A DNA stretch of 64,000 nt from an uncultured Gammaproteobacteria bacterium. GTDB taxonomy: Bacteria > Patescibacteriota > Microgenomatia > Levybacterales > GWA1-39-11. The DNA lies in contig CAZXND010000002.1 of NCBI GenBank assembly GCA_964641355.1, positions 143,112-207,111 of the forward strand. Direction: 5' to 3'. The position numbers and the translations under genes were made by a program. Position 1 is the stretch's first letter; every line of letters begins with the position of its first letter. This document shows, one piece after another, positions 8,624 to 63,304 of this stretch. The notes beneath the pieces are model-generated. The model was not told the DNA's origin. It searched no databases and was given only the letters and a program-made list of their open reading frames with translations.

Positions 8624-10294
8624 TTAGATCCTTCGATCCCAACTTTTAACAGTTGATAAAATGGTGAGGCCCAAGACCAGAAAAAAAGAAAGAAGGGTAA
8701 TGATTGTTGCAAAACTTCTAACTTGAGTATTTTTAAAAACAACTATTACACTATTTCTACCCTTAGGAAGGGTAAAAGATATAATTCCTTTTTCATTGTT
8801 AACGCTTTTAGTTTTTCCATCAGAAACATACGACCATCCAGGAAAATAAGATATATTTCCCAAAACTTTTACCTTATTTTTTGAAACAACACTCACAAGG
8901 TACTTCGATCCTAATTGCTTTACACTAGCTATATTACCCAACCCTTCTTCTAAAATAAATTTCTTTTCGGGACGCAAGGACACGGTCTTAAACCATATCG
9001 TGTTGAATAAGTCACCTGGACTATTAGTGCCATCAATAAAATTAGATTTATTTATATAATATGAATCAGTTCTATCATGATAATACGCTGGAACAGTATA
9101 GCCATATGTTAAAATTATTGACAGTAGGACGAATAAGGGAAGTACTAAATATTTTTTGTTTACAGATATTAATCCATTAAAAAATACTGCCCCAGATAAA
9201 AATGCTGAAATAAGCATTTCAATACTTAGAAGCCGCCAGGGAAATTGAAAATATGAAATAAGTGGAAGTCTCCAAAAAATCTTAGAATACGCGGTCATTA
9301 AGAAAAAAGTAAAAAAATATGATACTAGGAAAAAAAGTAATATATAGAAGATATTCGCAGATCTTCTACTATTAGCAACTTTTAACAGAATAAATAATGA
9401 TAACAACACAAAAAAAATATTAATTACTCCCAACTGCAACGACATCTTATTATTAAATGTAGAGCTAACAAAACCGGTGCCCCAAGATGGAAATATAAGC
9501 TCTGCTAATTCAGGAAAATTCGATTCTACACTGTAAAGCTCCAACCCCTTAACTATGTTTTTTTCTGAAAGTGCGGGTATCCAAAAAATGGATGCTATTC
9601 CCAAACCAAAAATAGAAATAATTAATACTTTTTTAATTCCATTTAGCCCCTTATTGTAAACTTTGATTAAAAAGACTGAATATAGTAGATAAAAAATAAA
9701 AAATGCTAGACCTAATATGTTATGTGAAAAAATAACCGCAGCCAGAGACAACGCAGAGACTCCTTGCCAAAAAAATGATTTATTAAAAATGGCCTTAGTG
9801 GATGTATATAATAAGAAAGGTGCAAATGCTAAAGCCCAAACCTCCCCTATTGAACCCCTCACGTATACATCAACAAAATGATAAGGCGTATAAGTATAAA
9901 CCACGGCCGACAAAAAACCTCCCCCTTTTCCCCAAAAACATTTAGACCAAAAATACATAGAAAACCCTCCTATAAAACTAGCCAATATCATTGATAACTT
10001 AAATGAAGAGACAAAACTAAATCCAAGTTGGTGAAGTAAAAGCGCAATATAGTTAGGTAATGGGTAAACAAAGTTAAATAAAGGTATCCCAAAAGTAAAA
10101 TTCAAATCAGGAGCCCATCTTGGATATAAAGATCCAAAGGAAAATTCTCTCCAAAACTCATAGAATCGGATTAAATGATATTCTCCATCATGAGTGGGAG
10201 GAAAACCTGGATGAAAGAGAGAAAGAACCGATGGTAGAAGTACGACAAATAGCAGGATCTGTATTATAAAATCGTTTTTGATTATTTTTTTCAC
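8624..10294 (-). CDS. polytopic membrane protein, family C (HDG...PRW...GYG family, distant YfhO-like), putative GT-C glycosyltransferase
   Basis: 556 aa. N-terminal TM followed by the loop HPGFPPTHDGEYHLIRFYEFWREF...LYPRWAPDLNFTFGIPLFNFVYPLP. C-terminal ISYFPGWSYVSDGK module and a terminal TM helix. Four paralogs in the window. Confidence 0.55.
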   Translation of the reverse strand: MKKIIKNDFIIQILLFVVLLPSVLSLFHPGFPPTHDGEYHLIRFYEFWREFSFGSLYPRWAPDLNFTFGIPLFNFVYPLPNYIALLLHQLGFSFVSSFKLSMILASFIGGFSMYFWSKCFWGKGGGFLSAVVYTYTPYHFVDVYVRGSIGEVWALAFAPFLLYTSTKAIFNKSFFWQGVSALSLAAVIFSHNILGLAFFIFYLLYSVFLIKVYNKGLNGIKKVLIISIFGLGIASIFWIPALSEKNIVKGLELYSVESNFPELAELIFPSWGTGFVSSTFNNKMSLQLGVINIFFVLLSLFILLKVANSRRSANIFYILLFFLVSYFFTFFLMTAYSKIFWRLPLISYFQFPWRLLSIEMLISAFLSGAVFFNGLISVNKKYLVLPLFVLLSIILTYGYTVPAYYHDRTDSYYINKSNFIDGTNSPGDLFNTIWFKTVSLRPEKKFILEEGLGNIASVKQLGSKYLVSVVSKNKVKVLGNISYFPGWSYVSDGKTKSVNNEKGIISFTLPKGRNSVIVVFKNTQVRSFATIITLLSFFLVLGLTILSTVKSWDRRI

Positions 10295-60287: not shown

Positions 60288-62684
60288 TTATTCTGCGGGA
60301 GTTGGACGAAGAGAAGTGAGGTTTTCCTTTGTATGTAACTCCCCTTTCATTTCTTGAAATCCTGGAATAGGCTTTGTAAGAGCAACTCTTAGTACATCAT
60401 CCATGTGCTCAGCAAAAACAAAACGCAAATCCTTAGTAACTTCTTGTGGAATCTCTTCAAGATCTTTTCTATTCTCTTTTGGAAGAATTATTGTTTTCAA
60501 ACCGGCTCTATGAGCTGCAATAACTTTTTCTTTTACTCCACCTATTTCAAGAACTCTTCCTCTAAGAGTTATTTCTCCAGTCATTCCAACTAGATGATTA
60601 ACTGATATTTTAGTGAAAGCGGAAACCAAAGCCGTTGTTATAGCAGCACCAGCTGATGGTCCATCTTTTGGAACCGCCCCTTCAGGAACATGAATGTGTA
60701 CATCAACTTTGTTATAAAAATTCTCATTTAATCCCAATTTCTTAGCTCGAGATCTTATATATGACATTGCAGCTTGTGCACTCTCCTTCATTACATCTCC
60801 AAGTTGCCCTGTTAAAATTAACTGTCCCTTTCCAGACATAAAAGCTACTTCTATAAAGAGGATATCTCCCCCAGCTTCTGTCCAAGCTAGTCCTGTTGAA
60901 ATTCCAACATCATCCTTCTTCTCAGCAAGAGTTGAAGAGAATTTTTCAGGACCTAGATATTTAGCCGTGTTTTTTTCTGTAACAACTACCTTATCCTTAA
61001 TTCCTTCAGCTATCGCTTTTGCAACTTTTCTAAATATTCCTGTCATTTCACGCTCGAGGTTTCTAACTCCTGCCTCTCTTGTGTATCTTCGAATTATGTG
61101 ATGGAGAGCATCGTCCTTTATTTCAACATTTTCATCTTTAAGTCCATGTGCCTCAAGCTGTTTTTTAAGCAAGAAGTCTTTTCCGATATGGAATTTTTCA
61201 TCTTCTGTATATCCTGCAAAATGTATTATTTCGAGTCTATCACGAAGAGCTGGAGGTATAGTATCCAAAACATTTGCAGTGGTTATAAACATTACATCCG
61301 AAAGATCAAATGCAACATCTAAATAGTGGTCTGAGAATTTATCGTTCTGTTCGGGATCCAAAGCTTCAAGAAGCGCAGCAGAAGGATCTCCACGATAATC
61401 TGCACCTACCTTGTCAATTTCATCGAGCATAAAAACAGGATTTTTAGTACCAGCGTCTTTTATTCCTTGTATTATTCTTCCTGGGAGAGCTCCAACATAT
61501 GTTCTTCTATGTCCACGAATCTCAGCCTCATCTCTAATTCCACCTAAAGATATTTTGACAAATTTTCTACCCAAGGATTTTGCAATAGACTTTCCAATAG
61601 AAGTTTTTCCCACTCCTGGAGGTCCAACAAAACATAAAATTGGACCCTTCATTTTTCCTGCAAGCTTGTGAACTGCAAGATATTCAACTACTCGCTCTTT
61701 AGTTTTTTTCAAACCATAGTGTCCCTCATCAAGGATTTTTTCTGCATCTTTAATATTGATACTAGACTTCGTTTTTTTGCTCCAAGGAAGAGCAATTAGA
61801 GTTTCAATGTAGTTTCTTAGCCATCCCTGATCAGGACTGTAGGGTGAAGTAGATTCGAGCTTTTTAAGCTCTTTCATTGCTTTTTCCTCTACGTCTTTTG
61901 GCATTCCGGCTTTTTTAATTTTGTCAGCAAGCTCTTTAAATTCATTCCCTTCCTCAGATTGTCCAAGCTCTTTCTCAATAGTCTTTATTCTTTCTCTAAG
62001 TATTGCTTCTTTTGCGTTTTTCTCAAAAGATTCTTGAGTTTTTGCCGCAATTTTTCTCTCAAGCTCTAGAACTTTTACTTCTCTTGATAAGAATTCTGAT
62101 ATTTTCTCAAGCCTCTTTTTAATATCCAAGCTCTCAAGAATTTCTTGTCTCTCAGATCCTTTGATGTCAAGCGTAGATGCAATCTGATCAGCAAGCTCTC
62201 CAGGAGTAATCTCAGAAAGTATATTCATATAAACCAAAAAGTCGGCTTGCTTCCCAAGGCTTAAAGCTTTTTTAAACTCATTAACTAAGTGATTAGACAA
62301 AGCCTTAATATCCGCACTTTCATTAACGTCTTCATCTATCTCCTCCACTTTTGCCAAAAAATAGGAATCTTTTTCTTCATACGAAAGAATTTTTGCACGA
62401 GATAGACCTTTAACGAGAGCATTTACCTCCCCATCTGTCCTAATCATTCTTTCAATGTGGGAAACAGTACCCATTTTGTATAAATCATCAGCGGCTGGTT
62501 CGTTAATCCTGGGGTTCTTTTGTAGAACAAGACAAACTATTCCATCATCAGCATAAGCTGCCTCAAGTGCAGAAAGACTTTTTGGCCTTCCAAAAGTAAG
62601 TATAGATTCAGTGTGGGGAAAAACAATTCCGTCTCGGATGGGAATAATAGGTATAAGTCTGATTTTACTTTTGCTACTGATCAT
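60288..62684 (-). CDS. lon: ATP-dependent Lon protease (La)
   Basis: 798 aa. AAA+ Walker A GPPGVGKTSIGKSIAKSL, Walker B FMLDEIDK, proteolytic-domain serine motif PKDGPSAGAAITTALVSAF, Lon N-domain at the N-terminus. Confidence 0.95.
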   Translation of the reverse strand: MISSKSKIRLIPIIPIRDGIVFPHTESILTFGRPKSLSALEAAYADDGIVCLVLQKNPRINEPAADDLYKMGTVSHIERMIRTDGEVNALVKGLSRAKILSYEEKDSYFLAKVEEIDEDVNESADIKALSNHLVNEFKKALSLGKQADFLVYMNILSEITPGELADQIASTLDIKGSERQEILESLDIKKRLEKISEFLSREVKVLELERKIAAKTQESFEKNAKEAILRERIKTIEKELGQSEEGNEFKELADKIKKAGMPKDVEEKAMKELKKLESTSPYSPDQGWLRNYIETLIALPWSKKTKSSINIKDAEKILDEGHYGLKKTKERVVEYLAVHKLAGKMKGPILCFVGPPGVGKTSIGKSIAKSLGRKFVKISLGGIRDEAEIRGHRRTYVGALPGRIIQGIKDAGTKNPVFMLDEIDKVGADYRGDPSAALLEALDPEQNDKFSDHYLDVAFDLSDVMFITTANVLDTIPPALRDRLEIIHFAGYTEDEKFHIGKDFLLKKQLEAHGLKDENVEIKDDALHHIIRRYTREAGVRNLEREMTGIFRKVAKAIAEGIKDKVVVTEKNTAKYLGPEKFSSTLAEKKDDVGISTGLAWTEAGGDILFIEVAFMSGKGQLILTGQLGDVMKESAQAAMSYIRSRAKKLGLNENFYNKVDVHIHVPEGAVPKDGPSAGAAITTALVSAFTKISVNHLVGMTGEITLRGRVLEIGGVKEKVIAAHRAGLKTIILPKENRKDLEEIPQEVTKDLRFVFAEHMDDVLRVALTKPIPGFQEMKGELHTKENLTSLRPTPAE

Positions 62685-62691
62685 AGGTTAT

Positions 62692-62725
62692 TTAGCAGTC
62701 TAGCACAAGAGTTGCTAATTGTCAA
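62692..62725 (-). promoter_or_regulatory. CIRCE-like inverted repeat (HrcA operator candidate) overlapping a sigma70-like lon promoter
   Basis: Plus-strand TTAGCAGTC-N9-AGTTGCTAA (62692-62718). Arms TTAGCA/TGCTAA are perfect inverted repeats 15 nt apart, the same geometry as the CIRCE consensus TTAGCACTC-N9-GAGTGCTAA. Minus-strand reading shows TTGACA, 17 nt, TAGACT, 12 nt, ATG(lon), so the IR spans the -35/-10 interval. Confidence 0.45.
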
Positions 62726-62809
62726 CGGTATCAAAATGTAACAATTTTAAAGCTAAAATGAATAAATTCAGCTAGAAGAAAAACAGTATAAGGAAAACAA
62801 AAGAACGAG

Positions 62810-63304
62810 TCAAGCCCTCCACAATATAAAAAGCCCCAGAACAACAACCGCCACTTGCCACACATCTGCTTTTCCCCAAATAAGAGCCTTATTATAGCGA
62901 CCATGCCAATGTAAAAGCTGATGAAAATCATTTTCAACTTTTATCACACCTCGTGGCTTAACTACCTTTATATATATAAGGCCATCCATTACATCTGGAA
63001 GTTGGGATCCTCCAATCGCAAATAATATATAGAGAAATTCTAACCCACCCCCAAGCTTGAAAAATGCTAATCCAAGAAAAATAATAAGACTCAGAAGTAG
63101 ATCAAAAACAATAACACCCCATACCTTCTTTTTATAATCCTTATGTTTAAAGAAATGTCCATGAGGTATAAAATCAGCAACATAATGAGAAACCACACCA
63201 GTAGCTCCGGCTATCAATAGTCCTTCGATTGGCCTGTCTGGAATAAGAGAATACGCTCCAACTCCTACAACCGCTCCAATTGCTGTGTGTCCAAAAGATA
63301 TCAT
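62810..63304 (-). CDS. small integral membrane protein, possibly membrane-bound metal-dependent hydrolase-like (YdjM/DUF457-like)
   Basis: 164 aa. His-rich loop SHYVADFIPHGHFFKH between hydrophobic helices. The family assignment is tentative. Confidence 0.35.
   Translation of the reverse strand: MISFGHTAIGAVVGVGAYSLIPDRPIEGLLIAGATGVVSHYVADFIPHGHFFKHKDYKKKVWGVIVFDLLLSLIIFLGLAFFKLGGGLEFLYILFAIGGSQLPDVMDGLIYIKVVKPRGVIKVENDFHQLLHWHGRYNKALIWGKADVWQVAVVVLGLFILWRA

Follow-up and report, generated by a model that had tools for sequence, protein, structure and literature searches.

The operator CIRCE of the heat-shock repressor HrcA has the consensus TTAGCACTC-N9-GAGTGCTAA, and groESL is the sole constant target of the HrcA/CIRCE system, its other targets being variable (PMC545781). 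In Mollicutes (Mycoplasma, Spiroplasma), lon, clpB and dnaK are under HrcA/CIRCE control, and in Mycoplasma gallisepticum CIRCE sites with more than two mutations were judged to be non-functional (PMC5138195). Induction of lon by heat or unfolded proteins is achieved by other means in other groups: an alternative sigma factor, sigma-32, is used in Proteobacteria and a different repressor with a different repeat, HspR/HAIR, in Actinobacteria. There, lon is controlled by HspR. In the literature that we searched, no paper linked HrcA or CIRCE to CPR, Patescibacteria or Microgenomates.

A 64-kb stretch of DNA from a Microgenomates bacterium, hereafter referred to as the window, contains a CIRCE-like inverted repeat inside the promoter of the heat-shock gene lon. 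The repeat resembles the CIRCE/HrcA system of the Bacillus subtilis type (dnaK, groESL) in its 27-bp span, in its identical outer hexamers and in a right arm that is one nucleotide off; likewise, it is located in the promoter of a quality-control gene and is presumed to act by promoter occlusion. It differs from the B. subtilis type in its target, which is lon and not the chaperone operons, in the degeneracy of its inner triplets (14/18 positions match) and in its placement: the B. subtilis-type operator is found downstream of the promoter, whereas the lon operator is inside the promoter, with the right arm fused to the −10 element. The HrcA proteins of CPR bacteria also differ from the B. subtilis type in being short, ~240 aa.

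With Mollicutes the locus shares lon as a CIRCE target in genome-reduced bacteria. However, Mollicutes are an unrelated phylum and their sites retain a near-full 9-mer consensus, with at most two mutations in functional ones; at Microgenomates lon only the outer hexamers are kept, and, in contrast to Mollicutes lon, a leaderless mRNA is predicted. The outer hexamers and the spacing are also common to the lon site and to the hrcA operators of Parcubacteria (loci L156, L204, L206 and L209); these, however, come from another CPR class and lie over or around the −35 element or past the −10 element (Table 1). What the lon site would have in common with sigma-32 or HspR/HAIR control is the outcome, with lon induced when cells face heat or unfolded proteins; neither a sigma-32-type promoter nor a HAIR-like repeat was found at lon of the window.

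The lon promoter and its probable operator

The identity of the gene downstream of the repeat, originally proposed to be lon, was confirmed by the Pfam domains of its open reading frame. On the minus strand, the elements upstream of it are arranged in the order TTGACA-a-TTAGCAACT-cttgtgcta-GACTGCTAA-ataacct-ATG (Table 1). The outer hexamers TTAGCA and TGCTAA are perfect complements of each other with 15 nt between them. The two 9-nt arms and the 9-nt spacer together cover 27 bp at positions 62692–62718, which is the geometry of CIRCE. Comparison with TTAGCACTC-N9-GAGTGCTAA revealed three mismatches in the left 9-mer and one in the right 9-mer, all of them confined to the inner triplets. Because the 9-mers carry 3 + 1 mismatches, the lon site was missed when the full CIRCE consensus was searched for at up to three mismatches.

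The promoter scan revealed a sigma-70-type promoter, TTGACA-17-TAGACT with a TGn before the −10 element, that matches at 10/12 promoter positions and has its −35 and −10 elements within the 17 ± 1 nt spacing that defines this type. The −10 element ends with the first T of the right arm and has its middle formed by the inner triplet of the same arm; TGCTAA reaches 5 nt past it. The end of the −10 element is separated from the lon ATG by 12 nt. Thus, the original prediction of a TTAGCA-N15-TGCTAA repeat with the arms and spacing of CIRCE, one and three mismatches in its 9-mers, and a position between a perfect TTGACA and a TAGACT −10 element 12 nt before the ATG was confirmed.

Table 1. Elements of the lon locus in the window and operators of hrcA genes of CPR bacteria.
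Feature	Position in the window	Strand	Sequence	Remarks
−35 hexamer	62720–62725	−	TTGACA	promoter scan; in 7/7 GTDB relatives
Left CIRCE-like arm	62710–62718	−	TTAGCAACT	outer hexamer TTAGCA at 62713–62718; begins 1 nt past the −35
Spacer, 9 nt	62701–62709	−	cttgtgcta	holds the extended −10 TG (62704–62705) and the first two −10 bases
−10 hexamer	62697–62702	−	TAGACT	promoter scan; overlaps the right arm
Right CIRCE-like arm	62692–62700	−	GACTGCTAA	outer hexamer TGCTAA at 62692–62697; 1 mismatch to GAGTGCTAA
Operator-to-ATG gap, 7 nt	62685–62691	−	ataacct	ATG at 62684–62682; predicted transcription start at ~62689–62691
Second promoter-like site	62785–62813	−	TTGACT-17-TATACT	consensus scan only; link to the lon system uncertain
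lon (ATP-dependent protease La), 798 aa	60288–62684	−		Pfam Lon_C (2e-93), LON_substr_bdg, AAA, Lon_lid
hrcA operator, L206			TTAGCACTC-N9-GAGTGCTAA	directly past a TTGACA-17-TATAAT promoter
hrcA operator, L204			TTAGCACTT-N9-GACTGCTAA	overlaps the −35
hrcA operator, L156			TTGGCACTC-N9-GACTGCTAA	overlaps the −35
hrcA operator, L209			TTAGCAATC-N9-GATTGCTAA	surrounds the −35, with TTGACA in the spacer
hrcA operator, L202			TTATCACTC-N9-GAGTGATAT	TTGACA in the spacer; more divergent variant

By chance, 0.02 copies of the exact hexamer repeat would be expected per window (2 occurrences in 100 shuffles), and one was observed. In 889 kb of related loci there was no further perfect TTAGCA-N15-TGCTAA beyond the sites that the scan described below targeted, and only three repeats with one mismatch were left unexplained. 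The perfect TTGACA had originally been considered conspicuous in DNA of such low G+C content (0.30–0.37, with ~0.30 in the window). This does not hold for the hexamer alone, which is present in 30 copies in the window; TTGACA-N17-TAnnnT is present in a single copy, at the lon site.

A second promoter-like site was noticed on the minus strand, ~90 nt ahead of the lon promoter, where the 3′ end of the preceding open reading frame lies. Initiation at this site would yield transcripts containing the repeat as RNA.

Most of the window (355–59028, mostly on the minus strand) is taken up by a ~58-kb co-directional envelope-glycosylation cluster with genes for GT2 and GT4 glycosyltransferases, epimerases and a flippase, as well as for PMT_2, YfhO and PTPS-related membrane proteins. 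Large families of paralogues are found in the cluster, one of them consisting of nine membrane proteins of ~430–570 aa; the one member of this family that was tested had no Pfam match. The cluster extends at least 8.6 kb past the left edge of the window (L207), and only glycosylation genes are found there.

Distribution of the element in Microgenomates and in metagenomes

The Lon protein of the window is 57–79% identical to Lon proteins of Microgenomates, and its identity to Lon of other phyla is at most 53%. With one genome taken per species, the closest Lon loci come from seven MAGs: one each of Roizmanbacteria, the ‘Microgenomates group’ and Woesebacteria, and four that are mislabelled. The latter (L002, L004, L005 and L007) bear the title ‘uncultured Gammaproteobacteria’; both the Lon proteins and the low G+C content assign them to Microgenomates, and the titles look like placeholder mislabels. 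The usual upstream neighbours of lon are 2-oxoacid:ferredoxin oxidoreductase-like genes and genes for membrane proteins, and no conserved regulator gene adjoining lon was found among the lon loci.

These seven GTDB relatives were picked by Lon protein similarity alone. In every one of them TTGACA-N-TT(A/G)GCA-N15-TGCTAA was found directly upstream of lon, the left outer hexamer being TTAGCA in six and TTGGCA in one (L008). Among the seven, sequence differences were seen in the 9-nt centre and in the inner triplet of the left arm. The element is, in other words, conserved at orthologous promoters with a drifting spacer, in 7/7 GTDB relatives and in a set of 96 unique sites from metagenomes and relatives. 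None of 73 non-CPR lon loci had a site with at most one hexamer mismatch within 400 nt upstream of the gene. All full-length Lon proteins encoded behind the element formed one cluster with Lon of the window, apart from the 69 full-length non-CPR Lon proteins that the same genome search had yielded. Exact-sequence look-up assigned those element-bearing Lon proteins for which a name was available to Levybacteria, Gottesmanbacteria, Woesebacteria and Shapirobacteria, and Roizmanbacteria were added through the GTDB search. As judged by these sequence comparisons, the lon promoter element spans the Microgenomates group.

Outside this group, a conserved repeat, ATAGCACAA-N9-GTGTGCTAT, was observed ~250 nt upstream of lon in Alkaliphilus and other Clostridia (L023, L025, L047 and L054). 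It has the span of CIRCE and a TAGCAC/GTGCTA core, and may be either a divergent CIRCE or an element of the neighbouring gene.

Metagenomes were scanned with the pattern TTGACA-N-TTRGCA-N15-TGCTAA, which contains 18 fixed bases, and at least 120 stretches matched. Among the 120 matches listed, 87 were located upstream of lon, and about ten more were incomplete and opened with the same Lon N-terminus. The non-lon matches among those listed preceded hsp20 (6), clpB (3), groES-groEL (2), rpoH (2), hrcA (1) and ftsH (1); one listed match flanks an hrcA-grpE-dnaK locus, and a handful of others were left unexplained. Since nearly all of the listed matches precede lon or classical HrcA targets, the pattern marks heat-shock promoters almost exclusively. 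Classing of the non-lon matches by similarity to the lon loci was uninformative.

Since the 87 lon sites were selected by the pattern, independent evidence comes only from the positions that the pattern did not fix and from the seven GTDB loci. At such unfixed positions of the −10 element, the T and the first A were present in all 96 unique lon sites, the second A in 94 and the C in 76; the T and the G of the extended −10 element were present in 80 and 74 sites, respectively. The resulting consensus of lon sites is TTGACA-n-TTAGCA-(a/g)-n6-TG-n-TA-g-A-C-TGCTAA. Complementarity is lacking between the two inner triplets, and therefore only the 6-bp half-sites are kept as a repeat in the lon class.

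The position of the start codon relative to the element is also characteristic. The lon start codon follows TGCTAA after a median of 6 nt, after 10 nt or less in 58 of 87 unique sites and after 7 nt in the window, and no Shine-Dalgarno sequence precedes the lon start in the window or in the lon loci. With the transcription start site predicted from the usual −10-to-start distance, ~7 nt after the −10 element, a 5′ UTR of ~4–7 nt would be produced. Because the start codon is separated from the repeat by a median of 6 nt, a leaderless or nearly leaderless lon mRNA is predicted for Microgenomates, and the very short leader that had been proposed for the window locus finds support in the related sites. 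Leaders of 40–70 nt were seen in a minority of Microgenomates lon loci (among L002–L008 and L082–L201).

Several other matches of the scan have features of their own. The same promoter/operator design without a long open reading frame downstream was found in L116 (298–450), L103 (minus strand, after the motif) and L130 (11811–11950). A terminator-like hairpin is located ~100 nt downstream of the motif in L116 and L103, and L103 has a 13-codon open reading frame. The motifs in these three loci may control small RNAs or peptides of the heat-shock response. Two tandem CIRCE-like repeats are present upstream of hsp20 in L192 (~787–846) and L197 (~2662–2722), on contigs with a G+C content of 0.55–0.57. 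In L139 and L157 (G+C 0.57), a perfect CIRCE lies within a TTGACA promoter upstream of an rpoH-like sigma factor gene, an arrangement reported for Geobacter sulfurreducens (PMC545781). In L195 (6573–6700), a low-G+C contig, hsp20 has a CIRCE promoter but no convincing CIRCE was found at groES-groEL; regulon membership thus varies between lineages.

HrcA and its operators in CPR bacteria

In typical bacteria HrcA is ~340 aa long. In L156, the hrcA match of the scan, the gene product has 245 aa and contains Pfam HrcA domains (PF01628), and relatives of this protein, ~240 aa in length, come from Staskawiczbacteria, Nealsonbacteria, Moranbacteria and the ‘Parcubacteria/Patescibacteria group’. A profile search of 1.84 billion representatives yielded 3986 HrcA proteins at E ≤ 1e-30. 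The set of short CPR HrcA considered here consists of proteins P0001–P0241 and P0407–P0554, with loci L202–L206 and L209. Genes of short CPR HrcA proteins head hrcA-grpE-dnaK-dnaJ operons of the Parcubacteria type. An even shorter class of ~167 aa (P0112, P0114 and P0118–P0120) retains the DNA-binding N-terminus and a C-terminal motif and is devoid of the middle part.

The operators upstream of these hrcA genes are compared in Table 1. The L156 and L204 operators have the same right arm as the window site. The ATC/GAT arm variants of the L209 operator recur in many lon sites, and the range of variation of CPR hrcA operators includes the arms found in the window. Upstream of Staskawiczbacteria hrcA (L202/L203, ~9940–9975), the sequence TTATCACTC-TTGACAAGA-GAGTGATAT was observed, in which the TTAGCA core is changed to TTATCA (T/A for G/C). 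This variant operator may reflect changed HrcA specificity.

Searches for the regulator itself were carried out at several levels. No hrcA gene was found in the 64-kb window, in 8.6 kb of flank on its left side or in ~100 Microgenomates lon loci, and no groESL or dnaK with the same repeat was found in the window and the 8.6-kb flank. When the window and related loci were searched with tblastn and with an HMM built from 116 short CPR HrcA proteins, only L156 and L176 matched. In HrcA protein searches seeded with L156 and P0116, every named match was from Parcubacteria and no Microgenomates HrcA was recovered. L179, a groESL locus with a promoter built like that of lon, belongs to Parcubacteria GW2011_GWB1_46_8, and its GroES was rejected as a Microgenomates chaperone. 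The hrcA gene and the chaperone-linked repeat that the original prediction called for were thus encountered in Parcubacteria only. P0102 was rejected as a Microgenomates HrcA, being from another Parcubacteria-type locus.

Probable control of lon by a heat-shock repressor

We consider it probable that the 27-bp repeat is a CIRCE-type operator within a sigma-70-type lon promoter and that lon is subject to HrcA-type repression, as the original prediction had it; comparative support comes from the presence of the element in 7/7 relatives and from the occurrence of the same pattern on genes of the HrcA regulon. A dimeric repressor of the HrcA family bound to the repeat would cover the spacer between the −35 and −10 elements and the −10 element itself. 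RNA polymerase would be excluded, and we propose that lon is kept low in unstressed cells because the repressor occludes the promoter. By analogy with the HrcA/GroEL titration model, unfolded proteins would titrate GroEL away from HrcA, HrcA activity would be lost, and transcription of the derepressed lon would yield an mRNA that is nearly leaderless. We infer HrcA as the binder in Microgenomates, as well as the feedback through GroEL, the induction by heat and the position of the transcription start.

The repeat could also be the operator of a different, lineage-specific dimeric repressor of Microgenomates that shares the outer hexamers and spacing of CIRCE. Such a protein would fit with the failure of our searches to find an HrcA assignable to Microgenomates, with the inner triplets of the lon class (canonically CTC/GAG), which are neither conserved nor complementary, and with the dominance of lon in the scan (87 of the 120 matches listed). 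However, CIRCE is recognized by its 6+15+6 geometry, the same pattern is found elsewhere on classical HrcA targets including hrcA, and the inner triplets of CPR hrcA operators vary in the same way. Moreover, lon has no candidate regulator gene linked to it. A non-HrcA repressor therefore appears improbable in the face of these observations, and it is less economical than HrcA as the binder.

Two further explanations dispense with a DNA-binding repressor. If the upstream promoter-like site gave rise to a longer lon transcript, the repeat might function mainly as a hairpin in it and affect mRNA stability or translation; the location of that site ~90 nt upstream would allow this, and in B. subtilis CIRCE has been reported to lower mRNA stability as well. 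We regard an RNA-level element as very unlikely, since folding prediction gave a weak structure of no unusual stability (−6.4 kcal/mol, z = −1.07), only 6 bp pair, there is no compensatory pattern past the fixed hexamers and no Rfam match, and the conserved −35 and −10 elements place the main start site downstream of the repeat. It is also hardly conceivable that no regulator is involved and that the repeat is a by-product of promoter constraints or chance. The overlap of the right arm with the −10 element means that the promoter could explain part of the conservation, but TTAGCA is located in the spacer between the −35 and −10 elements, where no sequence is imposed by RNA polymerase, and yet six of the seven relatives have TTAGCA and the seventh TTGGCA. 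TGCTAA extends 5 nt beyond the −10 element, the chance expectation is 0.02 per window, and the element is absent from 73 other (non-CPR) lon promoters.

HrcA/CIRCE is a textbook system with lon as a known target in Mollicutes, and the Microgenomates lon site adds no new mechanism to it. It is further set apart from the known cases by its conservation throughout the Microgenomates group. The site has four mismatches to the 18-nt consensus, which is over the limit of two mutations set for Mollicutes. A more far-reaching interpretation, which we regard as doubtful, is that the HrcA/CIRCE circuit has been re-centred on lon in Microgenomates, with lon as its most conserved and possibly its principal target, a half-site reduced to TTAGCA, an extended −10 element and a leaderless mRNA, or that the site is read by a repressor other than HrcA. 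If true, either re-centring on lon or a non-HrcA reader would mean that the heat-shock regulon of CPR bacteria has been rewired across a whole lineage.

Next to nothing is known of how CPR/Patescibacteria, organisms that cannot be cultivated on their own, regulate their genes. Control of lon by a heat-shock repressor is a prediction testable from sequence for Levybacteria, Gottesmanbacteria, Woesebacteria, Shapirobacteria and Roizmanbacteria. In addition, a defined promoter (TTGACA, 17 nt, TGnTAgACT) combined with a likely leaderless mRNA may be used to calibrate the prediction of promoters, transcription start sites and start codons in CPR genomes.
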